Below are positions 32,355 to 50,908 of a stretch of DNA of 64,000 nucleotides, in pieces. A program made the position numbers and the translations under genes. Numbering within the stretch: position 1 is the stretch's first letter; each line of letters begins with the position of its first letter. The notes under the pieces are model-generated. The model worked only from the letters and a program-made list of their open reading frames with translations. It had not been told where the DNA came from and searched no databases. Source of the stretch: Escherichia coli (lineage in GTDB: Bacteria > Pseudomonadota > Gammaproteobacteria > Enterobacterales > Enterobacteriaceae); assembly GCF_003334785.1 (NCBI RefSeq), contig NZ_QOWV01000002.1; one strand, given 5' to 3'.

Positions 32355-32469
32355 CAGAAAACCCTCCGAGTGGTGTGTTTTTTTGCGACTACTAATCGCT
32401 TTTTTCGTGGTGGCTGAAATTTAGCCACCAATAGTAGGCACTTGTGATGAATATATTCACGATGAATTG

Positions 32470-32883: not shown

Positions 32884-33030
32884 ATGAGCAAGCAAGTAAC
32901 ACTCATGACTGATGCGATTCCTTATCAGGAGTTCGCAAAACTAATAGGAAAATCGACATGAAGTGGTTTACTGAATTTGGCCACCTGAACAGAGGTGATA
33001 TGCTCACCTCAGAACAACACAGGTGCCATA

Positions 33031-34178
<1,148 letters not shown>

Positions 34179-34398
34179 CTCGGTGGCCAGTTTTTGTTGA
34201 CCACTTCAACAGGAGCGGTTCGTCGGATGATCGATAAAGGAAAGCTGCCTGTAATTGATATGACCGATCCACAATCAGCTTCAGGTCGTGCAGGTGAATA
34301 TTGGGTATACCTTCCGGCATGGAATAACGGACTAAAACTGGCTTATGAAAGCCGCCCTAAAGAGATTCGTGACGGCTGGTTGATGTGGTTAGGTCTCG

Positions 34399-34593
34399 GT
34401 GAACCACGTTAAGGAGAACCGTATGAATGAGCCTCGTTGTATTGCTCAGTTACTGCGTAACGAAAGCCCCAGGGCGATTGACTTCACCATCACCCACGGT
34501 AAGGGGCGTAAGGGAATCATTATCCGCACCAAAAAACAGAGTCCGTTAAAAAAGGCTCTGACCTTTCTGAAAAGCCGGAGGGTATGGAAATGA
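34399..34593 (+). CDS. small hypothetical ORF between cox and B (P2 orf78 position)
   Basis: 64-aa ORF overlapping the cox 3' end and the B start; no independent support. Confidence 0.3.
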   Translation: MNHVKENRMNEPRCIAQLLRNESPRAIDFTITHGKGRKGIIIRTKKQSPLKKALTFLKSRRVWK

Positions 34594-35090
34594 CAGTGAT
34601 GACGCTCAATCTCGTTGAAAAACAGCCAGCAGCTATGCGCCGGATAATTGGTAAGCATCTTGCCGTTCCTCGCTGGCAGGATACATGTGATTATTATAAT
34701 CAGATGATGGAGCGCGAACGGTTAACGGTTTGCTTCCATGCTCAGTTAAAACAGCGTCACGCAACGATGTGTTTTGAAGAAATGAACGACGTCGAACGTG
34801 AACGACTGGTATGTGCAATTGATGAATTGCGTGGGGCATTCTCAAAACGCCGTCAGGTTGGCGCAAGTGAGTATGCATATATTAGTTTTTTAACAGTCAG
34901 TCAGCGTCGTACTTTATTTATGCATGCCGGATTGACTGAAAAAGAATTCAACCAGCCATACTGGCGAATTAATGAAGAATCATGTTACTGGCGTGATGCT
35001 TTATTCCGTGCATTACGTGAATTATTCAGCCTGTTTGAGTATGCACCGACAATTCTGACGTCGGTAAAACCAGAGCAATATCTGCATTAA
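34584..35090 (+). CDS. B: P2 replication gene B protein (helicase-loader-like)
   Basis: ~166 aa ORF at the position of P2 B between cox and A. Confidence 0.75.
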   Translation: MEMTVMTLNLVEKQPAAMRRIIGKHLAVPRWQDTCDYYNQMMERERLTVCFHAQLKQRHATMCFEEMNDVERERLVCAIDELRGAFSKRRQVGASEYAYISFLTVSQRRTLFMHAGLTEKEFNQPYWRINEESCYWRDALFRALRELFSLFEYAPTILTSVKPEQYLH

Positions 35091-35153
35091 GTAATTAACC
35101 AGAGTTTTTAACGCACTTAATCGTGCGGGGCTTCTTTTTGCCTGGAGAAAGTC

Positions 35154-35378
35154 ATGCATACAGTTTCTGAAAATCAGTGCGGTAAATTCGCATTACTGCT
35201 GCAACAGGCCAGAACCGAAGCACAGGCCGACGCTGCGACGCGCTTTTCTTCTCATCTTGACGCCATGATTCGCCACATCACAAAGGCGGAGTTATCCCGA
35301 GTGGAGATAGTCGAGCTGCTCAGTCAGGAGTCGGAAAAATTTCACAATATCGGATTGTCTCGCGGGGAGGTGCTTTGA
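35154..35378 (+). CDS. hypothetical early protein (P2 orf80 position)
   Basis: 74-aa ORF in the early operon. Confidence 0.5.
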
Positions 35379-35680
35379 TGTCCTGTTCTCATTCAGTTGT
35401 ATTACTGAATAACGCCTTAAAAATCGCCGTTATGGAAAATGGCGATTTGTCTCTTATTCAACTTTGTCTTGATAAAGAAAAACGCGACATCACTGAATCT
35501 GTTATCGCGATTTATCAGAATGAATTAAACCTCCTGTCTGATGTGGTCAATTTACTTGTTAAACGCGCTGTATTCCACAAGCAAATTTCCTCCGTGGATG
35601 AACTGACAAAATTAACGACAGAACTTGCCAGTTATTGCGCTGATGTATCCAGGAAACTTAACGATAAAAGGAGCTGGTAA
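35375..35680 (+). CDS. hypothetical early protein (P2 orf81 position)
   Basis: 101-aa ORF, start overlaps the previous stop. Confidence 0.5.
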
Positions 35681-35904
35681 TGCCGGACAACGTAGATTTT
35701 ATTCAGGAACAACAGGCTGAATTACTGGAGCGCCAGATTAACGCGGCAAGGGTAAAACATTGCGGTGCTTCTGCGCTGGTTTGCGAAGAGTGTGACGCGC
35801 CAATACCTGCTGCCCGTCGTGCGGCTTACCCGTCAGCCACGCGTTGTGTTTCCTGTCAGTCAGTCTTTGAAGCAAAAAACAAACATTACCGGAGAACGGC
35901 ATGA
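35680..35904 (+). CDS. DksA/TraR-family C4 zinc-finger protein (P2 orf82 position)
   Basis: CEECDAPIPAARRAAYPSATRCVSCQ four-Cys motif. Confidence 0.6.
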   Translation: MPDNVDFIQEQQAELLERQINAARVKHCGASALVCEECDAPIPAARRAAYPSATRCVSCQSVFEAKNKHYRRTA

Positions 35905-36176
35905 GTATTCGTATTGAAATTGGCGAACGTTATGTCGTTACCAGTGACAGCTTTCAGTTTATTCTCCACGAGAAAAAGAGAGCGGAAAGCGGTAAAAACG
36001 CCGGTCAGGAATGGCTGGCGGTGGTTGGTTATTACCCGAAATTAAGCCAGCTCGTTTCCGGCCTGATGCATCACGATATTCTGACCGGAAGCGCAAAGTC
36101 TTTTGCTGATTTAAACGCGCAGGTTGAGCAACTCAGCAAGCGTTGTTCAGAGGCTTTTGGCTCATATGGCCGTTAA
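35901..36176 (+). CDS. hypothetical early protein (P2 orf83 position)
   Basis: 91-aa ORF overlapping the A start. Confidence 0.5.
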   Translation: MSIRIEIGERYVVTSDSFQFILHEKKRAESGKNAGQEWLAVVGYYPKLSQLVSGLMHHDILTGSAKSFADLNAQVEQLSKRCSEAFGSYGR

Positions 36177-38451
36177 AGCCTCCGGGCGTTTTGTCCCTCC
36201 GTCAGCATTTGCTGCAGGCACCGGTAAGGCGTTTACCGGTGCTTATGCATGGAACGCGCCACGCGAGGCTGTCGGGCGCGAAAGACCCCTTACACGTGAC
36301 GAGATGCGTCAGGTGCAAGGTGTTTTATCCACGATTAACCGCCTGCCTTACTTTTTGCGCTCGCTGTTTACGTCACGCTATGACTACATCCGGCGCAATA
36401 AAAGCCCGGTGCACGGGTTTTATTTCCTCACATCCACTTTTCAGCGTCGTTTATGGCCGCGCATTGAGCGTGTGAATCAGCGCCATGAAATGAACACCGA
36501 CGCGTCGAAGCTGTTTCTGGCTGAGCGTGACCACTATGCGCGCCTGCCGGGAATGAATGACAAGGAGCTGAAAAAGTTTGCCGCCCGTATCTCATCGCAG
36601 CTTTTCATGATGTATGAGGAACTCAGCGATGCCTGGGTGGATGCGCATGGCGAGAAAGAATCGCTGTTTACGGATGAGGCGCAGGCTCACCTCTATGGTC
36701 ATGTTGCTGGCGCTGCACGTGCTTTCAATATTTCCCCGCTTTACTGGAAAAAATACCGTAAAGGACAGATGACCACGAGGCAGGCATATTCTGCAATTGC
36801 CCGTCTGTTTAACGATGAGTGGTGGACTCATCAGCTTAAAGGCCAGCGTATGCGCTGGCATGAAGCGTTACTGATAGCTGTCGGGGAGGTCAATAAAGAC
36901 CGTTCTCCTTATGCCAGTAAACACGCCATTCGTGATGTGCGTGCGCGCCGCCAGGCAAATCTGGAATTTCTTAAATCGTGTGACCTTGAAAACAGGGAAA
37001 CCGGCGAGCGCATCGACCTTATCAGTAAGGTGATGGGCAGTATTTCTAATCCTGAAATTCGCCGGATGGAGCTGATGAACACCATTGCCGGTATTGAGCG
37101 TTACGCCGCCGCAGAGGGTGATGTGGGGATGTTTATCACGCTGACCGCGCCGTCAAAGTATCACCCGACACGTCAGGTCAGAAAAGGCGAAAGTAAAACC
37201 GTTCAGCTAAATTACGGCTGGAACGATGAGGCATTTAATCCAAAGGATGCGCAGCGTTATCTCTGCCGTATCTGGAGCCTGATGCGCACGGCATTCAAGG
37301 ATAATGACTTACAGGTCTACGGTTTGCGTGTCGTCGAGCCACACCACGACGGAACGCCGCACTGGCATATGATGCTTTTTTGTAATCCACGCCAGCGTAA
37401 CCAGATTATTGAAATCATGCGTCGCTACGCGCTCAAAGAGGATGGAGACGAAAGAGGAGCTGCGCGAAACCGTTTTCAGGCAAAACACCTTAACCGGGGC
37501 GGTGCTGCGGGGTATATCGCGAAATACATCTCAAAAAACATCGATGGCTATGCACTGGATGGTCAGCTCGATAACGACACCGGCAGGCCGCTGAAAGACA
37601 CAGCCGCGGCTGTTACCGCATGGGCGTCAACGTGGCGCATACCACAATTTAAAACGGTTGGCCTGCCGACAATGGGGGCTTACCGTGAACTACGCAAATT
37701 GCCCCGCGGCGTCAGCATTGCTGATGAGTTTGACGAGCGCGTCGAGGCTGCACGCGCCGCCGCAGACAGTGGTGATTTTGCGCTGTATATCAGCGCGCAG
37801 GGCGGGGCAAATGTCCCGCGCGATTGTCAGACTGTCAGGGTCGCCCGTAGTCCGTCGGATGACGTTAACGAGTACGAGGAAGAAGTCGAGAGAGTGGTCG
37901 GCATTTACGCGCCGCATCTCGGCGCGCGTCATATTCATATCACCAGAACGACGGACTGGCACATTGTGCCGAAAGTTCCGGTCGTTGAGCCTTTGACTTT
38001 AAAAAGCGGCATCGCCGCGCCTCGGAGTCCTGTCAATAACTGTGGAAAACTCACCGGTGGTGATACTTCGTTACCGGCTCCCACACCTTCTGAGCACGCC
38101 GCAGCAGTGCTTAATCTGGTTGATGACGGTGTTATCGAATGGAGTGACCCGGAGGTCGTGAGGGCGCTCAGAGGTGCATTAAAACACGGTCGGAGAACGC
38201 CAAGTCGTCAGCAAAGAAACGGAAGCCCGTTAAAACCACATGAAATTGCACCATCGGCCAGACTGACCCGGTCGGAAAGAATGCAAATTACCCGTATCCG
38301 CGTTGACCTTGCTCAGAACGGTATCAGGCCGCAGCGATGGGAGCTTGAGGCGCTGGCGCGTGGCGCGACCGTAAATTATGACGGGAAAAAATTCACGTAT
38401 CCGGTCGCTGATGAGTGGCCGGGATTCTCAACAGTAATGGAGTGGACATGA
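36166..38451 (+). CDS. A: P2 replication initiation protein A (rolling-circle nickase)
   Basis: 761 aa from ATG 36166, MAVKASGRFVPPSAFAAGTGKAFTGAYAW...; largest early-operon ORF. Confidence 0.9.
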   Translation: MAVKASGRFVPPSAFAAGTGKAFTGAYAWNAPREAVGRERPLTRDEMRQVQGVLSTINRLPYFLRSLFTSRYDYIRRNKSPVHGFYFLTSTFQRRLWPRIERVNQRHEMNTDASKLFLAERDHYARLPGMNDKELKKFAARISSQLFMMYEELSDAWVDAHGEKESLFTDEAQAHLYGHVAGAARAFNISPLYWKKYRKGQMTTRQAYSAIARLFNDEWWTHQLKGQRMRWHEALLIAVGEVNKDRSPYASKHAIRDVRARRQANLEFLKSCDLENRETGERIDLISKVMGSISNPEIRRMELMNTIAGIERYAAAEGDVGMFITLTAPSKYHPTRQVRKGESKTVQLNYGWNDEAFNPKDAQRYLCRIWSLMRTAFKDNDLQVYGLRVVEPHHDGTPHWHMMLFCNPRQRNQIIEIMRRYALKEDGDERGAARNRFQAKHLNRGGAAGYIAKYISKNIDGYALDGQLDNDTGRPLKDTAAAVTAWASTWRIPQFKTVGLPTMGAYRELRKLPRGVSIADEFDERVEAARAAADSGDFALYISAQGGANVPRDCQTVRVARSPSDDVNEYEEEVERVVGIYAPHLGARHIHITRTTDWHIVPKVPVVEPLTLKSGIAAPRSPVNNCGKLTGGDTSLPAPTPSEHAAAVLNLVDDGVIEWSDPEVVRALRGALKHGRRTPSRQQRNGSPLKPHEIAPSARLTRSERMQITRIRVDLAQNGIRPQRWELEALARGATVNYDGKKFTYPVADEWPGFSTVMEWT

Positions 38452-38777
38452 TGGCAAAAATTCACGAGGTAAAGCTGCACGCAAAATATTTCGACCTTGT
38501 ACTGGAAGGAAAGAAACGCGCAGAGTTTCGGAAAAAAGATCGTAATTATGAGCGCGGGGGCACGTTGATTTTGCATGAATGGGTGCAGGGTGTGTTTACG
38601 GGGCGAAAGGTTGAAGCCCGGATAACAGATGTTACTGACCTGTCAGACTGGCTGGAAGATTATGTCTTGCTGCACAGAATACTAGGTGAGATACTGCCGC
38701 TGACTGTCAAGCTGGCAGTATCCTCCACATTTTTTATAAATCTAAGGCGAAGAACGGTGGCAATATATTTGCTTTAA
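38451..38777 (+). CDS. small PUA/ASCH-like protein (P2 orf91 position)
   Basis: MAKIHEVKLHAKYFDLVLEGKKRAEFRKKDRNYERGGTLILHEW...; start overlaps the A stop; C-terminal end uncertain. Confidence 0.5.
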   Translation: MAKIHEVKLHAKYFDLVLEGKKRAEFRKKDRNYERGGTLILHEWVQGVFTGRKVEARITDVTDLSDWLEDYVLLHRILGEILPLTVKLAVSSTFFINLRRRTVAIYLL

Positions 38778-38815
38778 ATTGTAAATAAGCAAATTATTCT
38801 AAGCCACAAATGATA

Positions 38816-39577
38816 TCAATTGAGTATCGATTTTCGTTCGAATATAACCATAACGCCAAGCGTCAAATGTAAGTCATCTATATGTGATTCGTATTCATAT
38901 TGGTCAGCATCAGGAGGTAGTAAATGCTCTGCTGCTGTAAAAACATCAATTGTAACAGATATATCGTCTGGAATTTCTTCATTTAATTCGGATATGTATT
39001 TTTTATATTTGTTTTTTAATTTCCTTATCATGTCTTCCTTATGGTGGATTGTAGTGCAGTAATTTTTTTTAGTTGAATCATTGTATGAATGGAATGAACA
39101 GTTTAATGCTAGGCCAAGACTTGAATTTCCTGTAGGGCCTGTGTGTTTAAAGTATTCAAGATTTCTTCTTATGTCAGAAAATAAAAGACTTTTACAGGGG
39201 GCATTTCCTTTAACTTCTATTGCACATATTGGAATGTCGAAAAATGGTCTGCTGTCCAATATGGCAATATCAATTCTGCCTGATCTTGTTGTGTTTGTGT
39301 TTTTTCTGACAGTTTTTTTTGAGAATGTTTTTTGGGGGTCAGACCGTTTCGATAAAGGAACTGTTGCATTAATGAATTTATTTGTATGGTACTCAAATAT
39401 AACTTTGTAATCACCATGGCGAAAAGATTTTATTTCTAACAACGATAGACCTATAGATACGGTAGCTACATATTCAGTGTTTATTTTTGCACCAGACCTG
39501 AAATCCATTAAATAAGTTGCGTCGGCTGACTTTTTCATTCCATCTTTTACAGCTTTCACAATATCCATGTTATTCAT
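38816..39577 (-). CDS. tin: Tin-like protein (P2 T-even phage exclusion)
   Basis: 253-aa ORF in AT-rich DNA immediately downstream of old on the same strand, the position and size of P2 tin. Confidence 0.7.
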   Translation of the reverse strand: MNNMDIVKAVKDGMKKSADATYLMDFRSGAKINTEYVATVSIGLSLLEIKSFRHGDYKVIFEYHTNKFINATVPLSKRSDPQKTFSKKTVRKNTNTTRSGRIDIAILDSRPFFDIPICAIEVKGNAPCKSLLFSDIRRNLEYFKHTGPTGNSSLGLALNCSFHSYNDSTKKNYCTTIHHKEDMIRKLKNKYKKYISELNEEIPDDISVTIDVFTAAEHLLPPDADQYEYESHIDDLHLTLGVMVIFERKSILN

Positions 39578-39751
39578 ATCAACACCTTTTATATTCCAGA
39601 ATTATAAATCTTAATGATTGATTTGTTTGTGTGTTTAGGTTACTAGATTGACGTACTTATAGCACATTCTGATTTTGAAATCACCATCCTTGGGTAAAGC
39701 ACAGCCTATCACTATTGGTTTAGTACTGTGCTGTAATAGTATCAGATTAAG

Positions 39752-41512
39752 TTAAATCCATTTTATGAAATCTTCCATTTCATCATATTTTTTTATTACT
39801 GCTCTAACATCTTTGCTTTCATCACATAAACAATCTAAAAGACTATCCCATTCAGTTTGTTTTTTACCAAATCCATAAACAGCCTCTATATCACCGGATT
39901 TCCATATATAGATTCCGTTATCTTTCAATTTTTGATGTATTTCATGTATATGCTTTTGTGTTTTTTCATGGTTACATATTTTGATGAAGTCTTTGCTTGA
40001 AATGCTTTTGAATGACTCAAAAGTAGTAACTTTTGTATTTAAACTAAGCTCTCCTGAGTTGATTGATTCAATCAAAGCAGTCAATAGATTATCACATTCA
40101 GTACTAAGTAAGTCTTTATGCTCTGTTAATAGAATATTTGATAAGAAATCACAATCAGCTAGAATCCTTGTTTTTATGCCGATGGCATTGATGATTTGTG
40201 ACATCTTAAATAAACTACCCTTACCGTCAACGGCAACAATGCAGATTTTACTCGGGTTGAGTTCATGTCCGTTAATTTTTTTATAAAGTGCATATAGAAC
40301 GTTTGTCTCTGTTTTCCCTTCAACAAGCAAAACTTCTTCAGAAAATAAAAGGTATGATGAATTAGAAAGCGTGAATGCTGAGTGCAATTGCGGTGATGAA
40401 GATTTATATAATTCTTCGATTTTTTCAGATATAGTCTTCCTTGCTATGGTTCCATTAGAATCCTTACAAACCTGAATCGCATTTGCTGCATGCTTTGCAG
40501 AAAGCATACTGGCTGAGTGAGTTGATATTATAACCTGATACCCTGATTCACTTAATGTGACAAGTGATTCTCTGACAGAATTAATGGCTGAAGGGTGTAA
40601 ATATAACTCAGGTTCATCAATGAAAATCAAAGTGTTTGATTTTTTTGATTCGCTGTTTTCTTTTTTTATTTCGGCCAGGTATTGAATTAATGCCATTTGA
40701 ATGGAACGTTGTGTTCCGTGACCAAATCGGCTGATATCTCTCATTACCGGTTCATCTTCCCGAGACTCAAAAACTTTCAGAGTGCCGGATTTAAATATCT
40801 CATCTAATGTCGGTGTGGGAAAGTGTAACTTTACACTTACGTCGGGAAAAAATTGGTTTACTTTTTTATTTACGCCTGAGTCTATTTTATTAAGGCTTTC
40901 TAATCTGTTCTCACCGTTGTGAGAAAGATATTTACCTATTTCTGATATGTTTTTTGAAAATTTTTCTTCGTGTTCTTGTTTTATTTCAGAAACAATTGCG
41001 GAAAGTATCTTTCCTATTGTGGTCGTGTTTTTGCATTTTGTTGAGTCTTCGACAGCGTCAGACATTGCAGGGATATGAATTGGTTCCGGAAATATATTGG
41101 AGATTGCACCATCTATGCCGCCAGGGTTTTTCTTCCACGTGGTACCGTCATATACATCCAGACTTTTTTTGGCTTTTCCTGTTTCCTTATTAAATTCCTG
41201 TCTTCTTGCAAAGGTAAGAGTCCCGTCAATTATAAACGGAGCTATTTTTTGTTGATTCTCTTCTGTTAACAAAGACAGAGTATCATCTGTTATACCTTGA
41301 ATAACGCCTTCAACGGATACGGGGTGTGTAGGATCGTACACATCTGATTCTGAAATCAAAGAGCCATCTAACAGCCACTTAATTGCTAAGATAATATTTG
41401 ATTTTCCTGCGTTATTATAACCAACTAAAGCAGTGAAGGGGCGCAAAATAGCCGATGTTGACTTACAAGAACGAAAGTTGCTAATTGAAACTGAAGCAAG
41501 ACGTACAGTCAT
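39752..41512 (-). CDS. old: OLD-family nuclease (ABC-type ATPase plus Toprim domain)
   Basis: 586 aa; Walker A GYNNAGKSN, Walker B LIFIDEPELYLHP, C-terminal Toprim-like LLVEGKTE...AVDGKGS...ADCDF; AT-rich. Confidence 0.9.
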   Translation of the reverse strand: MTVRLASVSISNFRSCKSTSAILRPFTALVGYNNAGKSNIILAIKWLLDGSLISESDVYDPTHPVSVEGVIQGITDDTLSLLTEENQQKIAPFIIDGTLTFARRQEFNKETGKAKKSLDVYDGTTWKKNPGGIDGAISNIFPEPIHIPAMSDAVEDSTKCKNTTTIGKILSAIVSEIKQEHEEKFSKNISEIGKYLSHNGENRLESLNKIDSGVNKKVNQFFPDVSVKLHFPTPTLDEIFKSGTLKVFESREDEPVMRDISRFGHGTQRSIQMALIQYLAEIKKENSESKKSNTLIFIDEPELYLHPSAINSVRESLVTLSESGYQVIISTHSASMLSAKHAANAIQVCKDSNGTIARKTISEKIEELYKSSSPQLHSAFTLSNSSYLLFSEEVLLVEGKTETNVLYALYKKINGHELNPSKICIVAVDGKGSLFKMSQIINAIGIKTRILADCDFLSNILLTEHKDLLSTECDNLLTALIESINSGELSLNTKVTTFESFKSISSKDFIKICNHEKTQKHIHEIHQKLKDNGIYIWKSGDIEAVYGFGKKQTEWDSLLDCLCDESKDVRAVIKKYDEMEDFIKWI

Positions 41513-41706
41513 TATTTTTCCTTAAATGTGCTATTTGTATGCAATGAGTTCATGCGAAACGCTTTTTTACATTTTATAGTCGTTGCATTCAAGGGTGCAT
41601 GAGATTGCATTAAGGGAAACTGTGATATGGCTTGGCTTTTGACTGGAAATACTGATGGCTCATTAGTTTTATTAAGGTGCATTAAAACCGCCCCGTGAAG
41701 CGGGCG

Positions 41707-41725
41707 GGCGAGGCGGGGAAAGCAC
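41707..41725. other. cos cohesive-end sequence (19 nt) of the P2-type genome
   Basis: GGCGAGGCGGGGAAAGCAC in the GC-rich non-coding region between old and Q; matches the P2 cohesive end as I recall it. Confidence 0.6.
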
Positions 41726-41894
41726 TGCGCGCTGGCGGTGGTGCTGATTTTGTTTTTTCAGCGTCTGAGCGCGTCGTGAAGGCGCTTAGTCTGCCCGTTG
41801 AGGCGTTGGTGTGTCTGCGGGGTGTTTTGTGCGGTGGTGAGCGTGTGAGGGCGTGATGACGGGGTGTAAAAAAGCCGCCCGCAGGCGGCGATGT

Positions 41895-42929
41895 TCAGCC
41901 GTTGTCTGTGTCCAGTGAGTAGTTTTTAAAGCGGATGACCTCCTGACCGAGCCAGCCGTTTATTTCCCGAATCCTGTCCTGTAACGGGATAAGCTCATTG
42001 CGGACAAAGACCTTTGCCACTTTCTCAATATCACCCAGCGACCCGACGTTCTCCGGCTTGCCGCCCATCAACTGAAAGGGGATGCGGTGCGCGTCCAGCA
42101 GGTCAGCGGCGCTGGCTTTTTTGATATTAAAAAAATCGTCCTTCGTTGCCACTTCACTGAGCGGGATAATTTTAATGCCGTCAGCTTTCCCCTGCGGGGC
42201 ATAGAGAAACAGATTTTTAAAGTTGTTGCGGCCTTTTGACTTCACCATGTTTTCGCGAAGCATTTCGATATCGTTGCGATCCTGCACGGCATCGGTGACG
42301 TACATGATATATCCGGCATGAGCGCCGTTTTCGTAATACTTGCGGCGGAACAGCGTGGCCGACTCATTCAGCCAGGCAGAATTAAGGGCGCTGAGATATT
42401 CCGGCAGGCCGTACAGCTCCTGATTAATATCCGGCTCCAGCAGGTGAAACACGGAGCCGGGCGCGAAGGCTGTCGGCTCGTTGAAGGACGGCACCCACCA
42501 GTAAACATCCTCCTCCACACCACGGCGGGTATATTTTGCCGGTGAGGTTTCCAGTCTGATGACCTTACCGGTGGTGCTGTAACGCTTTTCCAGAAACGCA
42601 TTACCGAACACCAGAAAATCCAGCACAAAGCGGCTGAAATCCTGCTGGGAAAGCCACGGGTGCGGAATAAACGTTGAAGCCAGAATATTACGTTTGACGT
42701 AAATCGGTGAGCTGTGATGCACGGCAGCACGCAGGCTTTTTGCCAGACCGGTAAAGCTGACCGGTGGCTCATACCATCTGCCGTTACTGATGCACTCGAC
42801 GTAATCCAGAATGTCACGGCGGTCGAGTACCGGCACCGGCTCACCAAAGGTGAATGCCTCCATTTTTGGGGCACTGGCAGTCATTTTTTTTGCCGCAGGT
42901 TGCGGTGTTTTCCCTTTTTTCTTGCTCAT
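41895..42929 (-). CDS. Q: portal protein (P2 gpQ)
   Basis: 344-aa ORF at the gpQ position. Confidence 0.85.
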   Translation of the reverse strand: MSKKKGKTPQPAAKKMTASAPKMEAFTFGEPVPVLDRRDILDYVECISNGRWYEPPVSFTGLAKSLRAAVHHSSPIYVKRNILASTFIPHPWLSQQDFSRFVLDFLVFGNAFLEKRYSTTGKVIRLETSPAKYTRRGVEEDVYWWVPSFNEPTAFAPGSVFHLLEPDINQELYGLPEYLSALNSAWLNESATLFRRKYYENGAHAGYIMYVTDAVQDRNDIEMLRENMVKSKGRNNFKNLFLYAPQGKADGIKIIPLSEVATKDDFFNIKKASAADLLDAHRIPFQLMGGKPENVGSLGDIEKVAKVFVRNELIPLQDRIREINGWLGQEVIRFKNYSLDTDNG

Positions 42930-44701
42930 CAGTAAAACTCCAGAATGGTGGATGTCAGCGGGGTGCTGATACCGGCGGTGAGTGGCTCATTTAACAGGGC
43001 GTGCATGGTCGCCCAGGCGAGGTCGGCGTGGCTGGCTTCCTCGCTGCGGCTGGCCTCATAGGTGGCGCTGCGTCCGCTGCTGGTCATGGTCTTGCGGATA
43101 GCCATAAACGAGCTGGTGATGTCGGTGGCGCTGACGTCATATTCCAGACAGCCACGACGGATAACGTCTTTTGCCTTGAGCACCATTGCGGTTTTCATTT
43201 CCGGTGTGTAGCGGATATCGCGCGCGGCGGGATAGAACGAGCGCACGAGCTGGAACACGCCGACACCGAGGCCGGTGGCATCAATACCGATGTATTCGAC
43301 GTTGTATTTTTCGGTGAGTTTGCGGATGGATTCAGCCTGGGTGGCAAAGTCCATGCCTTTCCACTGGTGACGCTCAAGTATTCTGAATTTGCCACCGGCC
43401 ACCACCGGCGGTGCCAGCACCACGCATCCGGCGCTGTCGCCACGGTGTGACGGGTCGTAACCAATCCATACCGGGCGGGAGCCGAACGGATTGGCGGCAA
43501 ACGGCGCATAGTCTTCCCATTCTTCCAGCGTGTCGACCATGCAGCGTTGCAGCTCCTCGAACGGGAACACCGACGCCTTGTCGTCCACAAATTCACACAT
43601 GAACAGGTTTTTAAAATCGTCGGCGCTGTTTTCACGTTTGAGCTGCTCAATGTCGAACAGCGTGCAGCCGCCTTTCAGGGCATCCTCAATGGTGACAATC
43701 TGCCGCCACTGGCCGTCCGCACAGAGAAGCCCACCGGCAAGGGCGTTATGACTGACGTCGATTTCCACGCGTTCAGCGGCGCTGGCGCGTCCCCGGTTAA
43801 ACAGTTCACCCGACCAGAACGGGTAGGCGTCGTGCGCCAGCGTGGACGGGGTGGAGAAATAGGTCGAGCGCAGGTGACTCTGTGAGGCCATACCTGATGC
43901 CACCTTACGCAGTACCTGAAAATTCGGGATCCAGAAAATCTCATCGACGTACAGGTCGCCGTTATGGCTCTGTGCGGTGTTGGAGTTGGTGCCGAGAAAA
44001 ATCAGTTTTGCACCGTTATTGCCCAGGACAATCGGGTCACCGGTCAGGTCAACGTCAACCAGCCGGGCAAAGGCGATGATGTATTCGCGGAACACATACG
44101 CCTGCGTTTTACTGGCCGACAGAAAAATCTGGTTATGACCGGTTTTCAGGGCGCGCAGCAGCGCCTCGCGGGAAAAATAAAACGTCGCGCCAATCTGGCG
44201 GGATTTCAGGATATCGCGGATGCGGTGCTCAAGCCCGGCGCGATACCAGTGCAACTGATATTCGAAAGACTGCTCAAAGAAAATCTGCTCCAGCTTTTCG
44301 ATGGCCTCGTCACTGAAAAAATTCTTTTTCGGTTTGCGGCGTTCGCCTTTGTTGCGGTTAGCGACGTTCGGATTAAGGTCTGCCTCGTTGCCGGTCTGGC
44401 TGTAACGGTTGACCCGTGCCAGTCGTTCAATCTGGCGTCCCAGCAGGTCAATTTCCTTGAAGTCCCCGCCGGTTTTCTGCGGTTTGATGATGAGCTGGGT
44501 CAGCCGCGCTTCCAGACTCATTTCGACACGGCTGATGGGAGCAACGCTGTCCCAGCCGTCGCGCTGTTTCCAGCTCTGCACCGTCGGGCGTTTCATCTGC
44601 AACATGGCGGCAATCTGCGGCACGGAAAACCCCTGCCAGTACAGCAGCGCCGCCTGACGACGCGGGTCGTGTAAAAGAGTGGTGTCTGTGGTGATGGTCA
44701 T
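42929..44701 (-). CDS. P: terminase large (ATPase) subunit (P2 gpP)
   Basis: MTITTDTTLLHDPRRQAALLYWQGFSVPQIAAML..., ~590 aa. Confidence 0.85.
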   Translation of the reverse strand: MTITTDTTLLHDPRRQAALLYWQGFSVPQIAAMLQMKRPTVQSWKQRDGWDSVAPISRVEMSLEARLTQLIIKPQKTGGDFKEIDLLGRQIERLARVNRYSQTGNEADLNPNVANRNKGERRKPKKNFFSDEAIEKLEQIFFEQSFEYQLHWYRAGLEHRIRDILKSRQIGATFYFSREALLRALKTGHNQIFLSASKTQAYVFREYIIAFARLVDVDLTGDPIVLGNNGAKLIFLGTNSNTAQSHNGDLYVDEIFWIPNFQVLRKVASGMASQSHLRSTYFSTPSTLAHDAYPFWSGELFNRGRASAAERVEIDVSHNALAGGLLCADGQWRQIVTIEDALKGGCTLFDIEQLKRENSADDFKNLFMCEFVDDKASVFPFEELQRCMVDTLEEWEDYAPFAANPFGSRPVWIGYDPSHRGDSAGCVVLAPPVVAGGKFRILERHQWKGMDFATQAESIRKLTEKYNVEYIGIDATGLGVGVFQLVRSFYPAARDIRYTPEMKTAMVLKAKDVIRRGCLEYDVSATDITSSFMAIRKTMTSSGRSATYEASRSEEASHADLAWATMHALLNEPLTAGISTPLTSTILEFY

Positions 44702-44874
44702 GAATACCTCGCCGTGATGAATACACGGCAAGGCTACTGAGTCGCGCCCCGCGATTCGCTAAGGTGCTGTTGTGTCAGTGATAAGCCATCCGGGACTGAT
44801 GGCGGAGGATGCGCATCGTCGGGAAACTGATGCCGACATGTGACTCCTCTAATCACTATTCAGGACTCCTGACA

Positions 44875-45729
44875 ATGGCAAAAAAAGTCTCAAAATTCTT
44901 TCGTATCGGCGTTGAGGGTGACACCTGTGACGGGCGTGTCATCAGTGCGCAGGATATTCAGGAAATGGCCGAAACCTTTGACCCGCGAGTCTATGGTTGC
45001 CGCATTAACCTGGAACATCTGCGCGGCATCCTGCCTGACGGTATTTTTAAGCGTTATGGCGATGTGGTCGAACTGAAGGCCGAAAAGATTGACGATGATT
45101 CGGTGCTGAAAGGCAAATGGGCGCTGTTTGCGAAAATCACCCCGACCGATGACCTTATCGCGATGAACAAGGCCGCGCAGAAGGTCTACACCTCAATGGA
45201 AATTCAGCCGAACTTTGCCAATACCGGCAAATGTTATCTGGTGGGTCTGGCCGTCACCGATGACCCGGCAAGCCTCGGCACGGAATACCTGGAATTCTGC
45301 CGCACGGCAAAACACAACCCTCTGAACCGCTTCAAATTAAGCCCTGAAAACCTGATTTCAGTGGCAACGCCTGTTGAGCTGGAATTTGAAGACCTGCCTG
45401 AAACCGTGTTCACCGCCCTGACCGAAAAGGTGAAGTCCATTTTTGGCCGCAAACAGGCCAGCGATGACGCCCGTCTGAATGACGTGCATGAAGCGGTGAC
45501 CGCTGTTGCTGAACATGTGCAGGAAAAACTGAGCGCCACTGAGCAGCGCCTCGCTGAGATGGAAACCGCTTTTTCCGCACTTAAGCAGGATGTGACTGAC
45601 AGGGCGGATGAAACCAGCCAGGCATTCACCCGCCTGAAAAACAGTCTCGACCACACCGAAAGTCTGACCCAGCAGCGCCGCAGCAAGGCCACCGGTGGTG
45701 GCGGTGACGCCCTGATGACGAACTGCTGA
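44875..45729 (+). CDS. O: capsid scaffolding protein (P2 gpO)
   Basis: MAKKVSKFFRIGVEGDTCDGRVISAQDIQEMAETFDPRVYG..., 284 aa, divergent from Q-P. Confidence 0.85.
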   Translation: MAKKVSKFFRIGVEGDTCDGRVISAQDIQEMAETFDPRVYGCRINLEHLRGILPDGIFKRYGDVVELKAEKIDDDSVLKGKWALFAKITPTDDLIAMNKAAQKVYTSMEIQPNFANTGKCYLVGLAVTDDPASLGTEYLEFCRTAKHNPLNRFKLSPENLISVATPVELEFEDLPETVFTALTEKVKSIFGRKQASDDARLNDVHEAVTAVAEHVQEKLSATEQRLAEMETAFSALKQDVTDRADETSQAFTRLKNSLDHTESLTQQRRSKATGGGGDALMTNC

Positions 45730-45787
45730 CCGGCGTCAGTCAGTCCGGGAAAACCTTCACGATTAACCCTTAATTTCAGGAAAAACT

Positions 45788-46861
45788 ATGCGCCAGGAAA
45801 CCCGCTTTAAATTTAATGCCTACCTGTCCCGTGTTGCCGAACTGAACGGCATCGACGCCGGTGATGTGTCGAAAAAATTCACCGTTGAACCGTCGGTCAC
45901 CCAGACCCTGATGAACACCATGCAGGAGTCCTCTGACTTTCTGACCCGCATCAACATTGTGCCGGTCAGCGAAATGAAAGGGGAAAAAATTGGCATCGGT
46001 GTCACCGGCTCCATCGCCAGCACCACCGACACCGCCGGTGGCACCGAGCGTCAGCCGAAGGACTTCTCGAAGCTGGCGTCAAACAAGTACGAATGCGACC
46101 AGATTAACTTCGATTTTTATATCCGCTACAAAACGCTGGACCTGTGGGCGCGTTATCAGGATTTCCAGCTCCGTGTCCGTAACGCCATTATCAAACGCCA
46201 GTCCCTTGATTTAATCATGGCCGGTTTTAACGGCGTGAGGCGTGCCGAAACCTCTGACCGCAGCAGCAATCCGATGCTGCAGGATGTGGCGGTCGGCTGG
46301 CTGCAGAAATACCGCAATGAAGCCCCGGCGCGCGTGATGAGCAAGGTCACTGACGAGGAAGGGCACACCACCTCTGAGGTTATCCGCGTGGGTAAGGGCG
46401 GTGATTATGCCAGCCTTGACGCACTGGTGATGGATGCGACCAACAACCTGATTGAGCCGTGGTATCAGGAAGACCCTGACCTTGTGGTGATTGTGGGACG
46501 TCAGCTACTGGCGGACAAGTATTTTCCCATCGTCAACAAGGAGCAGGACAACAGCGAAATGCTGGCCGCTGACGTCATCATCAGCCAGAAACGCATCGGT
46601 AACCTGCCGGCGGTACGCGTCCCGTACTTCCCGGCGGATGCGATGCTCATCACAAAGCTGGAAAACCTGTCCATCTACTACATGGATGACAGCCATCGCC
46701 GCGTGATTGAGGAAAACCCGAAACTCGACCGCGTGGAGAACTACGAGTCAATGAACATTGATTACGTGGTGGAAGACTACGCCGCCGGTTGTCTGGTGGA
46801 AAAAATTAAGGTCGGTGATTTCTCCACACTGGCTAAAGCGACCGCAGAGCCGGGAGCGTAA
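45788..46861 (+). CDS. N: major capsid protein (P2 gpN)
   Basis: 357-aa ORF following O. Confidence 0.85.
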   Translation: MRQETRFKFNAYLSRVAELNGIDAGDVSKKFTVEPSVTQTLMNTMQESSDFLTRINIVPVSEMKGEKIGIGVTGSIASTTDTAGGTERQPKDFSKLASNKYECDQINFDFYIRYKTLDLWARYQDFQLRVRNAIIKRQSLDLIMAGFNGVRRAETSDRSSNPMLQDVAVGWLQKYRNEAPARVMSKVTDEEGHTTSEVIRVGKGGDYASLDALVMDATNNLIEPWYQEDPDLVVIVGRQLLADKYFPIVNKEQDNSEMLAADVIISQKRIGNLPAVRVPYFPADAMLITKLENLSIYYMDDSHRRVIEENPKLDRVENYESMNIDYVVEDYAAGCLVEKIKVGDFSTLAKATAEPGA

Positions 46862-46864
46862 CCG

Positions 46865-47608
46865 ATGACGAGTCCCGCACAGCGCCACATGATGCGGGTC
46901 TCGGCAGCGATGACCGCGCAGCGGGAAGCCGCCCCGCTGCGACATGCAACTGTCTATGAGCAGATGCTGGTTAAGCTCGCCGCAGACCAGCGCACACTGA
47001 AAGCGATTTATTCAAAAGAGCTGAAGGCCGCGAAAAAACGCGAACTGCTGCCGTTCTGGTTGCCGTGGGTGAACGGCGTGCTGGAGCAGGGCAAAGGTGC
47101 ACAGGATGACATTCTGATGACGGTCATGCTGTGGCGTCTGGATACCGGCGATATTGCCGGTGCGCTGGAGATTGCCCGTTATGCCCTGAAATACGGTCTG
47201 ACCATGCCGGGTAAACACCGCCGCACCCCGCCGTACATGTTCACCGAGGAGGTGGCACTTGCGGCCATGCGCGCCCACGCTGCCGGTGAGTCTGTGGATC
47301 CCCGCCTGCTGACGGACACCCTCGAACTGACCGCCACGGCTGACATGCCTGATGAAGTGCGCGCAAAGCTGCACAAAATCACCGGTCTGTTTCTGCGTGA
47401 CGCTGGTGATGCCGCCGGTGCGCTGGCTCACCTGCAGCGTGCGACACAGCTCGACTGTCAGGCAGGCGTCAAAAAAGAGATTGAACGACTGGAGCGGGAG
47501 CTGAAACCGAAGCCGGAGCCGCAACCAAAAGCGGCCACCCGCGCCCCGCGTAAGACCCGGAGCGTGACACCGGCAAAACGTGGACGCCCGAAAAAGAAAG
47601 CCAGTTAA
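46865..47608 (+). CDS. M: terminase small/endonuclease subunit (P2 gpM)
   Basis: 247-aa ORF with very basic C-terminal tail (KPKPEPQPKAATRAPRKTRSVTPAKRGRPKKKAS). Confidence 0.8.
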   Translation: MTSPAQRHMMRVSAAMTAQREAAPLRHATVYEQMLVKLAADQRTLKAIYSKELKAAKKRELLPFWLPWVNGVLEQGKGAQDDILMTVMLWRLDTGDIAGALEIARYALKYGLTMPGKHRRTPPYMFTEEVALAAMRAHAAGESVDPRLLTDTLELTATADMPDEVRAKLHKITGLFLRDAGDAAGALAHLQRATQLDCQAGVKKEIERLERELKPKPEPQPKAATRAPRKTRSVTPAKRGRPKKKAS

Positions 47609-47647
47609 CAACCGAATGCGCCCCGCGCCAGGGCGGCACGCCGGTCA

Positions 47648-48076
47648 GTGAGGGTGACCGGACTTATTGAATCGCTGTCACCGTCAGGGCGTCGGCGACT
47701 GAGCGCCGAACTGGCGAAACGTCTGCGGCAGAGTCAGCAGCGCCGGGTGATGGCACAGAAAGCCCCGGACGGCACACCCTACGCACCACGCCAGCAGCAG
47801 AGCGCCAGAAAAAAGACCGATCGCGTTAAGCGAAAAATGTTTGCGAAACTTATCACCAGTCGTTTTTTGCATATCCGCGCCAGCCCGGAACAGGCATCAA
47901 TGGAGTTTTTCGGCGGGAAGTCACCGAAAATCGCCAGCGTGCATCAGTTCGGTCTGTCGGAAGAAACCCGGAAAGACGGTAAGAAAATTGATTATCCGGC
48001 GCGTCCTCTGCTCGGCTTTACCGGTGAGGATGTGCAGATGATTGAAGAGATTATCCTGGCTCACCTTGAGCGTTAG
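47648..48076 (+). CDS. late morphogenesis protein; by position gpL (head completion), but the C-terminal HQFG...PARP motif resembles the gpS/virion-morphogenesis family
   Basis: 142-aa ORF starting at GTG 47648 with no ATG in frame upstream; identity as L versus S cannot be settled without a search. Confidence 0.55.
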   Translation: MRVTGLIESLSPSGRRRLSAELAKRLRQSQQRRVMAQKAPDGTPYAPRQQQSARKKTDRVKRKMFAKLITSRFLHIRASPEQASMEFFGGKSPKIASVHQFGLSEETRKDGKKIDYPARPLLGFTGEDVQMIEEIILAHLER

Positions 48077-48106
48077 TTTTATCCAGGCAGAGGCTGATGC
48101 GCAATT

Positions 48107-48140
48107 AAACATTGAGCGCCGTGCTGGTCGCTCAATGTTT
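48107..48140. other. perfect 12-bp inverted repeat (hairpin) at the junction between GC-rich late genes and the AT-rich cargo
   Basis: AAACATTGAGCG - 10 nt - CGCTCAATGTTT; no adjacent T-tract on either strand. Confidence 0.5.
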
Positions 48141-48146
48141 AGAGGT

Positions 48147-48932
48147 TTATGAGTGGTTTTTATTTGATGCTTTGTATTCTAAAACCTTCTTATTGGCGTA
48201 AAAGAATTTTGTATATGACAGGAATATAAGCAGACCTGAAATGAAATAGATTAGGGATATTATTAATAATGTTTTTCTGTGGCTGTTATTATCTTTAATC
48301 TCCTGACTTAACCATTCGGAGTCCTCCTCGTTTAGCTGTAAGAGCTTATTGCAGGCGATCTCAGGAAGTGTGTCTTTTATAAATACGTTTTGCAGACTCT
48401 TGCAATCGGCAAGGCTATAAGTTTTATTAAATTCAACTGTTTTATTTTTGAAGGATAAAAGAACTTTGTCACTATAAACATAGTACATCATATTTTTATA
48501 TGGTATACCTATGGCATCCCTTACTATAGCGGATTGTTCATTGTGTATGTAACATGCGAAGATAATATAAAGAATTCCGGCCAGGACTGCACTCATTGTT
48601 TTTGTGATGCATGGCGGTTCTGTTATGTCTCCCCAGAAGCGAGTAAGGAAAAAATCCGATGTTTTTAGTTTTCCATCAATCAGCCCCTGCTGTATCATTC
48701 TCACATCTTCGATGCCTGATACATTGATTCCGTTAAGTGTTTTAAATAGTTGAATATCGCGCCACTCGCGGTCCAGTCTTTTTAATTTTTTGTCTGAATA
48801 TCCAAATTTGAAATAATGTGCAATAAGCCTCATAAGGTTACTTTTACCAAAGCTAAAAAATGCTAATACTGCAAAGACCAAAAGATACAAAACGATTAGC
48901 TCCCACACATTAGTCACATTATAGCTGACCAT
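48147..48932 (-). CDS. hypothetical membrane protein (261 aa, 3 predicted transmembrane helices), foreign AT-rich cargo of unknown function
   Basis: ORF with strong Shine-Dalgarno (AAGGAGAG 7 nt before ATG); hydrophobic segments WELIVLYLLVFAVLAFFSF, MSAVLAGILYIIFACYI, KTLLIISLIYFISGLLIFLSY; AT-rich codon usage unlike the flanking phage genes. Confidence 0.6.
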   Translation of the reverse strand: MVSYNVTNVWELIVLYLLVFAVLAFFSFGKSNLMRLIAHYFKFGYSDKKLKRLDREWRDIQLFKTLNGINVSGIEDVRMIQQGLIDGKLKTSDFFLTRFWGDITEPPCITKTMSAVLAGILYIIFACYIHNEQSAIVRDAIGIPYKNMMYYVYSDKVLLSFKNKTVEFNKTYSLADCKSLQNVFIKDTLPEIACNKLLQLNEEDSEWLSQEIKDNNSHRKTLLIISLIYFISGLLIFLSYTKFFYANKKVLEYKASNKNHS

Positions 48933-49015
48933 TACGCTCTCCTTGAATGTTGTCTGGTGGTTCTACAAATGAATCCAGATAGCATAACTTTTATATATTG
49001 TGCAATCTCACATGC

Positions 49016-49651
49016 ATGAACACTCTCGCAAATATTCAGGAACTCGCGCGCGCACTGCGCAACATGATCCGCACCGGCATTATCGTTGAAACCGACCTTA
49101 ACGCCGGTCGCTGCCGTGTGCAGACCGGCGGCATGTGCACCGACTGGCTTCAGTGGCTGACCCATCGCGCCGGACGTTCGCGCACATGGTGGGCACCTTC
49201 CGTGGGGGAACAGGTGCTGATTCTGGCCGTGGGCGGTGAACTCGACACGGCGTTCGTTCTGCCGGGGATTTATTCCGGCGATAACCCTGCGCCGTCTGCG
49301 TCGGCTGATGCCCTGCATATCCGTTTCCCTGACGGGGCGGTGATTGAGTATGAGCCCGAAACCAGTGCACTCACGGTAAGCGGAATTAAAACGGCCAGCG
49401 TGACGGCTTCTGATTCTGTTACTGCCACGGTGCCGGTGGTCACGGTGAAAGCATCAACCCGCGTCACCCTGGACACACCAGAGGTGGTCTGCACCAACAG
49501 GCTGATTACCGGCACGCTGGAAGTGCAGAAGGGCGGGACGATGCGCGGCAACATTGAACACACCGGCGGTGAACTCTCATCAAACGGTAAGGTACTGCAT
49601 ACCCATAAACACCCCGGCGACAGCGGCGGCACAACCGGGAGTCCTCTATGA
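49016..49651 (+). CDS. V: baseplate spike/assembly protein (P2 gpV)
   Basis: MNTLANIQELARALRNMIRTGIIVETDLNAGRCRVQTGG..., 211 aa. Confidence 0.85.
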   Translation: MNTLANIQELARALRNMIRTGIIVETDLNAGRCRVQTGGMCTDWLQWLTHRAGRSRTWWAPSVGEQVLILAVGGELDTAFVLPGIYSGDNPAPSASADALHIRFPDGAVIEYEPETSALTVSGIKTASVTASDSVTATVPVVTVKASTRVTLDTPEVVCTNRLITGTLEVQKGGTMRGNIEHTGGELSSNGKVLHTHKHPGDSGGTTGSPL

Positions 49652-49995
49652 CAGCGCGTTATCTCGGAATGAATCGCAGTGATGGCCTGACTGTCACTGA
49701 CCTTGAGCATATCAGCCAGAGTATCGGCGATATCCTGCGCACACCGGTCGGCTCACGGGTGATGCGTCGTGATTACGGCTCGTTGCTGGCGTCAATGATT
49801 GACCAGCCGCAGACTCCGGCGCTTGAGTTGCAGATTAAGGTCGCCTGTTACATGGCAGTGCTGAAATGGGAACCCCGCGTCACCCTGTCATCCGTCACCA
49901 CGGCGCGCAGTTTTGACGGGCGAATGACGGTCACGTTAACCGGTCAGCACAACGACACCGGCCAGCCACTTTCGTTAACCATCCCTGTGAGTTGA
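49648..49995 (+). CDS. W: baseplate wedge protein (P2 gpW, GPW/gp25 family)
   Basis: 115 aa, overlaps the V stop. Confidence 0.85.
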   Translation: MTARYLGMNRSDGLTVTDLEHISQSIGDILRTPVGSRVMRRDYGSLLASMIDQPQTPALELQIKVACYMAVLKWEPRVTLSSVTTARSFDGRMTVTLTGQHNDTGQPLSLTIPVS

Positions 49996-49999
49996 AACC

Positions 50000-50908
50000 A
50001 TGCCGATTATCGACCTGAACCAGCTACCCGCACCGGATGTGGTCGAGGAGCTGGACTTTGAAACCATTCTTGCCGAACGCAAGGCGACACTGATTTCCCT
50101 TTACCCGGAAGACCAGCAGGAGGCGGTCGCCCGTACCCTGACGCTGGAATCCGAACCTCTCGTCAAACTGCTGGAGGAAAATGCTTATCGTGAGCTTATC
50201 TGGCGTCAGCGTGTGAATGAGGCCGCACGGGCGGTAATGCTGGCCTGTGCCGCCGGTAATGACCTTGATGTGATTGGTGCCAATTACAACACCACGCGCC
50301 TGATTATCACCCCGGCAGATGATTCGACCCTCCCGCCGACACCGGCAGTGATGGAATCTGACACCGATTATCGTCTGCGTATTCAGCAGGCGTTTGAGGG
50401 CTTAAGCGTCGCCGGGTCGGTGGGTGCCTATCAGTATCATGGTCGCAGTGCCGACGGGCGTGTCGCAGATATCTCTGTCACCAGTCCGTCTCCGGCCTGC
50501 GTCACTATCTCCGTGCTGTCACGTGAAAATAACGGTGTGGCATCCGAAGACCTGCTGGCGGTGGTGCGTAACGCCCTTAATGGCGAGGACGTCAGGCCGG
50601 TGGCCGACCGCGTGACCGTGCAGTCTGCCGCCATTGTTGAATACCAGATAAACGCCACGCTTTACCTTTACCCTGGTCCCGAAAGCGAACCCATCCGCGC
50701 CGCCGCCGTGAAAAAACTGGAAGCGTATATCACGGCACAGCACCGGCTGGGGCGTGACATCCGTCTGTCTGCCATTTATGCCGCTTTGCATGTGGAAGGC
50801 GTGCAGCGTGTCGAGCTGGCCGCACCACTGGCCGACATTGTGCTCAACAGTACGCAGGCGTCTTTCTGCACCGAATACAGCGTCGTGACCGGAGGCTCGG
50901 ATGAGTGA
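50000..50908 (+). CDS. J: baseplate protein (P2 gpJ)
   Basis: 302-aa ORF after W. Confidence 0.85.
   Translation: MPIIDLNQLPAPDVVEELDFETILAERKATLISLYPEDQQEAVARTLTLESEPLVKLLEENAYRELIWRQRVNEAARAVMLACAAGNDLDVIGANYNTTRLIITPADDSTLPPTPAVMESDTDYRLRIQQAFEGLSVAGSVGAYQYHGRSADGRVADISVTSPSPACVTISVLSRENNGVASEDLLAVVRNALNGEDVRPVADRVTVQSAAIVEYQINATLYLYPGPESEPIRAAAVKKLEAYITAQHRLGRDIRLSAIYAALHVEGVQRVELAAPLADIVLNSTQASFCTEYSVVTGGSDE

Follow-up and report, generated by a model that had tools for sequence, protein, structure and literature searches.

The window (the whole 64-kb stretch of DNA that was analysed) carries a P2-type prophage in an E. coli chromosome. Positions 1-31234 are E. coli core chromosome, with yehI, metG, the yeh fimbrial genes, rcn, thiMD, yegX, the gat operon, yegS and yegR, and this host stretch is 100% identical to strain LR-64-2 and others. 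The prophage is delimited by two perfect copies of the 27-bp P2 att core, located at 31235-31261 and 61589-61615, and is bracketed by the host genes yegR on one side and yegQ/trhP on the other. Its extent and the insertion element that it harbors were placed as follows.

31235..61615, no strand: P2-type prophage from attL core to attR core, placed by the perfect 27-bp att cores and by P2 colinearity
32959..34208, plus strand: IS3-family (IS911-like) element in cox, 1,250 bp, with a 3-bp target duplication ACA; its transposase matches NF033516

The gene content was determined by tblastn, using all 42 P2 proteins as queries against the whole 64 kb with a cut-off of E <= 1e-3. Full-length matches were obtained for Q, P, O, N, M, orf30, V, W, J, I, FI, FII, E, T, U, D and ogr of the late-gene set, and for int, C, orf78, B, orf80-83, A, orf91, tin and old among the other genes. 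Most of these matches are 97-100% identical to P2, with Old, C and B at 100%, and Old and Tin were also detected by PADLOC. The prophage is colinear with phage P2 (AF063097) at 95-99% nucleotide identity (blastn). According to tblastn and to blastn against AF063097, the genes run from int/C/cox through the late operons to ogr, which is the order of P2-type (Peduovirus) phages. The duplicated 27-bp att core and a cos site between old and Q are likewise those of Peduovirus; the ends of the P2 record (cosL, cosR) align here to an overlapping stretch at 41707-41725. The prophage thus has its gene order, att core, cos, int, C, B, A, tin, old and late operons in common with bacteriophage P2 (AF063097 / NC_001895), and both carry an orf30-type gene in the same slot between S and V. 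However, it differs from P2 in three respects. An invertible tail-fibre segment and a Hin/Gin-type invertase replace the C-terminal part of H, G and fun(Z), cox is interrupted by the IS, and the region from L to the start of S, corresponding to P2 coordinates ~5950-8948, is missing.

This last difference falls between the genes M and V, where the following features were located.

46865..47608, plus strand: gene M, terminase small/endonuclease subunit, intact and the last gene ahead of the deletion (tblastn, gpM residues 1-247, 98.4% identity)
47609..47654, plus strand: remnant of the M-L intergenic region, in which the ascending arm of a hairpin is kept and the descending arm and TTTT tract are deleted (alignment to P2 5901-5949)
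47648..48076, plus strand: S', the tail-completion gene S without codons 1-9, a 142-aa ORF (tblastn, gpS residues 10-150, 96.5% identity)
47655..47658, no strand: deletion junction, TGAC being the kept copy of a short direct repeat, with 2,999 bp gone (offset against P2 and L144)
48106..48141, no strand: hairpin terminator ending the O operon and facing the 3' end of orf30 (colinear with P2 feature 9397-9433)
48147..48932, minus strand: orf30-type moron encoding a 261-aa predicted membrane protein (88% amino-acid identity to P2 Orf30)
48947..48974, plus strand: binding site for the activator Ogr in the late promoter P_V (27 of 28 bases match P2 feature 10239-10266)
49016..49651, plus strand: gene V, baseplate spike, intact (tblastn, gpV residues 1-211, 98.1% identity)

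The genes L, X, Y, K, lysA, lysB, lysC and R gave no tblastn match (E <= 1e-3) anywhere in the 64-kb window, and S has additionally lost its first 9 codons. The absent genes comprise the head-completion gene L, the tail gene X, the holin gene Y, the endolysin gene K, lysA, the spanin genes lysB/lysC and the tail-completion gene R. Hence the P2 lysis cassette, which consists of homologues of Y, K, LysA and LysB/LysC between X and R, is not present. A non-homologous cassette would have no space either, because the largest unassigned gap in the prophage measures 382 bp (the region of cos and the old promoter) and the remaining gaps are P2 intergenic regions. Among the genes of the window only yegX (GH25, ~16668-17495) is muramidase-like; it is a core gene of the host and sits about 14 kb beyond attL, outside the prophage.

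These data bear on an earlier reading of the same DNA, the first-pass annotation, which had proposed that the prophage lacks a lysis cassette, has neither X nor R inside attL-attR and has lost part of its tail-completion module. All three proposals hold: there are no matches to the cassette genes and no spare coding space for them, X and R are without a tblastn match in 64 kb, and of the tail-completion genes R is absent and S truncated. A search across the window for holin, endolysin, gpR and gpX homologues, which could have overturned the proposal, found none by tblastn, and mapping of the endpoints on the P2 reference, a check that the annotation had suggested, returned one 2,999-bp gap. 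The absence of the lysis cassette and of the completion genes is therefore real and unambiguous, with corrections. The 142-aa ORF is gpS without its first nine residues. M is not followed by one 142-aa ORF and then V, as had been stated; the 261-aa minus-strand gene at 48147-48932 fills most of the interval. Nor is the capsid module complete as claimed, because the head-completion gene L is gone.

The truncated S' still matches TIGR01635 at positions 10-143 of 144, with 109 bits against a cut-off of 37.65 (TIGR01635 / PF05069), and it also matches phrog_26; gpS has no solved structural relative. In P2 the stop codon of R overlaps the start codon of S. S' has lost both the native ATG and this translational coupling to R, and starts at a GTG donated by the intergenic remnant without a usable Shine-Dalgarno sequence. 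Judged by these features, S' is probably a pseudogene.

The orf30-type gene has a GC content of 37%. Its product matches phrog_2407 over its full length (positions 1-261 of 261, E = 1.7e-142) and the gene lies between S and V on the opposite strand, which places it in the P2 Orf30 moron family. The protein is predicted to span the membrane with three helices and to carry a small alpha/beta insert in which two cysteines are conserved (AF2 model, pLDDT 84.8). No matches to Pfam, NCBIfam, PADLOC or PDB sequences were obtained for the protein; the best Foldseek hit against the PDB has an E-value of 0.07, and all AFDB50 matches are uncharacterised membrane proteins. The family is small, with 39 representatives at 50% identity among 1.84 billion proteins, and a distant member, 21% identical, is found between S and V in other P2-like prophages as well. 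P2-like phages have three known moron sites, of which the S-V gap is one (PMC6823313). The orf30-type gene is a normal P2 accessory gene and is not connected to the deletion.

The deletion was mapped by alignment to P2. Window positions 46800-47657 align to P2 5092-5949 and positions 47652-49700 to P2 8943-10992, so that the left and right offsets differ by 2,999 bp; the same difference is found against the intact sibling prophage L144. In intact siblings the missing segment is bounded by GGGTGAC on the left, which lies in the loop of the M-L intergenic hairpin, and by GGCTGAC on the right, which represents codons 9-11 of S. A single GGGTGAC remains in the window, and the junction sequence contains GTGAGGGTGACCGGACT. 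Repeats at both parental endpoints, retention of one copy and absence of filler DNA are the marks of a microhomology-mediated deletion. The 2,999 bp were thus probably lost through slipped-strand or microhomology-mediated joining, to which the hairpin is likely to have contributed. Other origins were considered and rejected. The P2 ori nick site resembles neither breakpoint, which speaks against a pseudo-ori used by gpA, the rolling-circle nickase. Invertase-, Int- or restriction-site-mediated deletion was dismissed on inspection of the two breakpoint sites, which share only GG-TGAC and are unlike the P2 att core. They are, by our assumption, also unlike gix/hix-type sites.

Comparison with siblings integrated at the same yegR/yegQ site shows how young this deletion is. 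The prophages L144 (GCA_012211965.1) and L149 (SRR28758669) carry the same tail-fibre/invertase module and orf30 allele as the window and are intact in the region concerned. They show no mismatches over 7,036 bp left of the junction and none beyond the repeat over 10,418 bp to its right. Over these 17,454 flanking bases they are identical to the window, and their sole difference is the extra 2,999 bp, which holds intact L, X, Y, K, lysA, lysB, R and S. The deletion must be very recent, since no substitution has accumulated across 17.4 kb. The exact S' allele of the window was found in only 2 contigs, whereas the full-length gpS form of this allele occurs in at least 24, always within the intact order L-X-Y-K-lysA-lysB-R-S-orf30-V. 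The interval is very probably what a single spontaneous deletion of recent date has left behind in an ordinary E. coli P2-type prophage. Strain LR-64-2, a candidate parent by its identical host flank, was rejected, as its prophage has no orf30 and only ~98% identity.

The source is a draft assembly and the left breakpoint lies at a very stable hairpin, so chimeric reads induced by the hairpin, or a mis-join, might have feigned the loss of an L-R segment that is really there. Such an artefact is hardly credible. The junction also occurs in the chromosome-level assembly of IAL7250 and in several independent assemblies, in prophages with additional unrelated deletions. Moreover, a 7-nt repeat is unable to collapse 3 kb of unique sequence, and assemblies of sibling prophages mostly resolve the region intact.

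Further siblings, at least 99.8% identical to the window in their shared parts, have lost other segments. L145/L152 (GCA_014451455.1) occupy the same gat-yegS-yegR locus and have the identical cox::IS junction. They have kept L-R and lack the regions corresponding to window positions 38625-46118 (orf91 to the 5' part of N) and 49379-55259 (3' part of V to 5' part of FI). In L143/L146 cox is intact, and the segments missing run from 42972 (most of P) through part of lysB and from 50104 to 55281 (end of W to the 5' part of FI). L140 has the V-FI deletion in common. The losses thus differ from line to line and affect capsid, terminase, baseplate and sheath genes. The cox::IS insertion is present in identical form in L152, L153 and L154. 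That a sibling with intact L-R has the same insertion indicates that cox::IS is the older lesion and predates the L-R deletion. A plausible course of events is that the prophage was grounded by cox::IS first and that separate lines then shed different blocks. Judged from these assemblies, the pattern is one of random decay, and the window prophage, once grounded, stands early in that process. It belongs to a common E. coli P2-type prophage lineage in which different strains show different losses, and its own damage is new.

Both lesions are expected to have functional consequences. According to the annotation of the P2 record, Cox is needed for excision and for repression of Pc. Phage P2 is not SOS-inducible. 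In the window cox is split by the IS into residues 1-25 at 32884-32958 and residues 20-91 at 34194-34409 (tblastn). By analogy with P2, the lytic programme presumably cannot start, and the early operon 3' of the IS is likely under polar effects. The late genes should be silent in a lysogen with an interrupted cox, and in that case the capsid and tail genes would offer selection no phenotype. Taken together, the lytic switch, excision, cell lysis and the completion of heads and tails would all be lost, unless a second P2-like prophage elsewhere in the genome complements the missing functions in trans, and the prophage would still supply C immunity and the Old and Tin defences.

The first-pass annotation had already recognised that cox is disrupted by an IS, now seen to be the 1,250-bp IS3-family element, and that the defence genes are kept, which agrees with old and tin being intact by tblastn and PADLOC. 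It had gone on to suggest domestication rather than random decay, and this suggestion is contradicted by the zero divergence from intact siblings and by the varied deletions among them. Under domestication, the host would selectively keep the capsid, tail, fibre, replication and defence genes and shed excision and lysis, and the product would be a non-lethal element such as a tailocin-like or GTA-like particle system or a defence island. Such an origin is very unlikely for the window. It is true that every remaining ORF is full length (tblastn), that old and tin are intact, that both lesions remove functions dangerous to the host and that domestication has been considered for defective P2 elements in which the defence genes are conserved (bioRxiv 10.64898/2026.02.27.708500). 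However, zero substitutions over 17.4 kb relative to intact siblings leave no time for visible selection, and the siblings have lost capsid, terminase, baseplate and sheath genes in other combinations. The architecture is also very rare (2 contigs), and in its other carriers the junction is accompanied by loss of tail, portal or replication genes. The late operons, as inferred from P2 biology, should stay silent under cox::IS. The head-completion protein L is gone. So are gpR, gpX and the lysis cassette, with gpS damaged, and these are components that a tailocin needs.

The comparison with tailocins leads to the same result. The window prophage resembles R-type pyocins/tailocins in having P2-related sheath, tube, baseplate, tape-measure and fibre genes. 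Tailocins have lost capsid and replication genes but have kept a lysis cassette and the full tail-completion set. The window prophage shows the opposite, with capsid and replication genes kept and lysis and tail completion lost. It has no complete tail set, since equivalents of gpR and gpX are absent and gpS is truncated, and it has no lysis cassette of its own. It has also kept Q, P, O, N, M, A and B, the genes for capsid, packaging and replication, at full length. A domesticated prophage in the sense reportedly used by Bobay et al. in 2014 would show the same defective architecture across related strains and purifying selection after inactivation. Here the architecture occurs in 2 contigs, the siblings are intact or differently deleted, and divergence is zero. 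That everything else is intact is no proof of selection, as the identical intact sibling shows the lesion to be merely new. The remaining ~27 kb of genes are intact because the lesion is young and has left them no time to decay, not because of selection.

A weaker form of domestication may nevertheless apply, by which the host retains a grounded prophage for the defence it provides; Old, Tin and the repressor are all undamaged and could plausibly benefit the cell. The cargo under selection could include old, tin, C immunity and perhaps orf30, and such selection has been raised for defective P2 elements in general (bioRxiv 10.64898/2026.02.27.708500). As a general concept, grounded prophages erode piecemeal by deletion, with immunity and cargo genes persisting (PMC6379469). 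The cryptic or grounded prophages of E. coli (the K-12 P2 remnant ogrK/yegZ, DLP12, Rac and Qin) are likewise immobilised and have lost excision and lysis, but the window prophage is at a much earlier stage, with two lesions and ~27 kb intact. Its near-identical siblings form a natural decay series of one prophage at one site, comprising the intact form, cox::IS and various large deletions. From such a series one could determine in what order, and how fast, prophages erode.

The junction is not confined to the window. Among 5,426 complete E. coli genomes it is present in one (IAL7250), whereas the Q-M block is found in 1,561. Scans with a 32-mer spanning the junction gave one match among IMG/VR viral contigs and none among metagenome contigs or species-representative genome contigs. 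The other carriers fall into two lineages. IAL7250 and SRR34701484 have the prophage at the same yegR/yegQ site; in IAL7250 the portal gene is frameshifted and tail genes are lost, and SRR34701484 has an A-P fusion. In GCA_000461215.1 and SRR958739 the remnant adjoins pflB, a different locus, and has other cargo and a truncated V; the junction sequence of the former is the same as that of IMG/VR UViG_2541047936_000006. All these carriers are more decayed than the window and diverge from it by ~2% in the flanks.

Identity of the junctions is not due to chance, because ~39,000 alternative repeat pairs of 3 nt and ~900 of 6 nt could have deleted holin and endolysin. One explanation is a single old deletion allele that is identical by descent in all carriers and was spread into the window by homologous recombination or helper-assisted transfer. 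The identical junction in IAL7250, SRR34701484, GCA_000461215.1 and SRR958739, the negligible probability of chance identity among ~39,000 3-nt pairs and the visible mosaicism of P2-like prophages all agree with common descent. Yet on either side the window shows no difference from its intact siblings as far as the junction itself. It departs from the other carriers at 47665, 8 bp to the right of the junction (T in the window and G in the carriers), and from the IAL lineage also at 47652, 3 bp to the left (G in the window and C in that lineage). In addition, each carrier lineage is identical to a different intact phage over at least 110 bp on both flanks. The matching phages are L144 and strain 20 for the window, the P2 reference for IAL7250, and IMG/VR L031 and L071 for GCA_000461215.1. 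An imported tract would therefore have to be shorter than 8 bp, and spread by recombination tracts of this size is implausible for the window. Descent from one deletion is accordingly unlikely. For the window, spread of one old deletion by recombination is overturned by the zero-SNP intact siblings. The three lineages resemble different intact phages as far as the breakpoint, which suggests at least two independent origins of the junction and probably three.

These apparently repeated origins draw attention to the structure at the left breakpoint. The M-L hairpin is an imperfect palindrome of ~52 nt with a folding energy of -24.3 kcal/mol as DNA (z = -4.5, P2) and -43.5 kcal/mol as RNA. It is not called as a terminator by a simple terminator scan because its T-run has only 4 bases. 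On the right, the break falls within CTGACCGG, which is exactly complementary to the ascending arm CCGGTCAG of the hairpin, and the 3' end of GGCTGAC overlaps this octamer. The spacing of the two repeat sites is conserved at 2,999 bp in 59 of 61 intact loci. In all 120 IMG/VR loci sampled the hairpin is intact, and among these 120 there are no other junctions at the hairpin loop. The S' proteins predicted from three other common S alleles, and a 140-aa start variant, are not on record. We consider it somewhat probable, on the sequences compared, that the site is a structure-directed deletion hot spot, at which the loop of the M-L hairpin is repeatedly joined to GGCTGAC 2,999 bp downstream and the head-completion/lysis/tail-completion block is excised. 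How this joining would proceed can only be inferred, as no clean template-switch geometry was derived that gives exactly this product. If the hot spot is real, P2 lysogens would have a favoured way of losing lytic growth in a single step. A junction that recurs with every base the same at a conserved hairpin offers a modest lead, open to testing, on mutational bias in the inactivation of prophages. As a counterpoint to the reading as decay, the recurrence of the junction could reflect selection for loss of the block besides mutational bias.

The slot between the tail-completion gene S and the baseplate gene V of the prophage is occupied by a gene on the opposite strand:

48147-48932, minus strand, Orf30-family membrane protein gene

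The encoded protein contains three transmembrane helices and two conserved cysteines, Cys177 and Cys194. Its AF2 model is confident, and searches of Pfam, NCBIfam, PADLOC and PDB returned no match to any known fold or family. In other P2-like prophages the same slot harbors distant Orf30 relatives sharing 21% identity. This retention suggests a conserved, putative role of the family in lysogenic conversion or defence.

The tail-fibre genes are organized as an invertible segment:

52332-54163, tail-fibre segment: G and the C-terminal part of H, plus, in inverted form, G' and the C-terminal part of H'
54225-54824, Hin/Gin-type invertase gene beside the segment

Depending on the orientation of the segment, H comprises 378 or 442 amino acids. 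In the sibling prophages L141 and L142 the segment is flipped relative to the window at 99.9% identity. Judging from this comparison, the invertase switch is evidently active in the phage lineage of the window.

The cox gene is interrupted by an insertion:

32959-34208, IS911-like element of 1,250 bp in cox, flanked by a target duplication of 3 bp (ACA)

At least four assemblies share exactly this insertion, making it the marker of a clonal prophage sub-lineage: GCA_003334785.1, GCA_014451455.1, GCA_002190955.1 and GCA_012531155.1. Further large deletions were observed in the siblings L140, L145/L152 and L143/L146, of which the following were located by their window equivalents:

38625-46118 and 49379-55259, deleted in L145/L152
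42972 onwards and 50104-55281, deleted in L143/L146

Within FI, the endpoints of two independent sibling deletions lie no more than 22 bp apart (55260 versus 55282). This near-coincidence hints at preferred breakpoints in the P2-type prophage in addition to the putative one at the junction of M with the truncated S (M-S').

An imperfect palindrome of about 52 nt is located between M and L in P2-like phages (window 47609-47654; 5923-5981 in P2), for which the P2 annotation AF063097 lists no feature. It is almost invariant among the 120 IMG/VR loci compared and precedes the sequence GACTTTT. Its folding energy is -24.3 kcal/mol for DNA (z = -4.5) and -43.5 kcal/mol for RNA. Attenuation, RNA processing and RNA stability are candidate roles.

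A P2 remnant with the M-S' junction of the window is also present in GCA_000461215.1 (KE702336.1). As assembled, it adjoins pflB-focA-ycaO instead of yegR/yegQ, for which another attachment site, an inversion or a scaffolding join are candidate explanations. At the position of P2 tin and old it harbors a Peptidase_S8 and AAA ATPase gene pair, which may represent a different, putative defence cargo.

The only muramidase-type gene within the window is the host core gene yegX (approximately 16668-17495), which encodes a lysozyme-like GH25 glycoside hydrolase and is unrelated to the prophage. In the 'complete' E. coli chromosomes of IAL7250 and LR-64-2, position 1 of the record coincides with the P2 replication gene A, presumably due to automatic start-fixing on a replication-initiator gene, so that the prophage is divided by the record origin.
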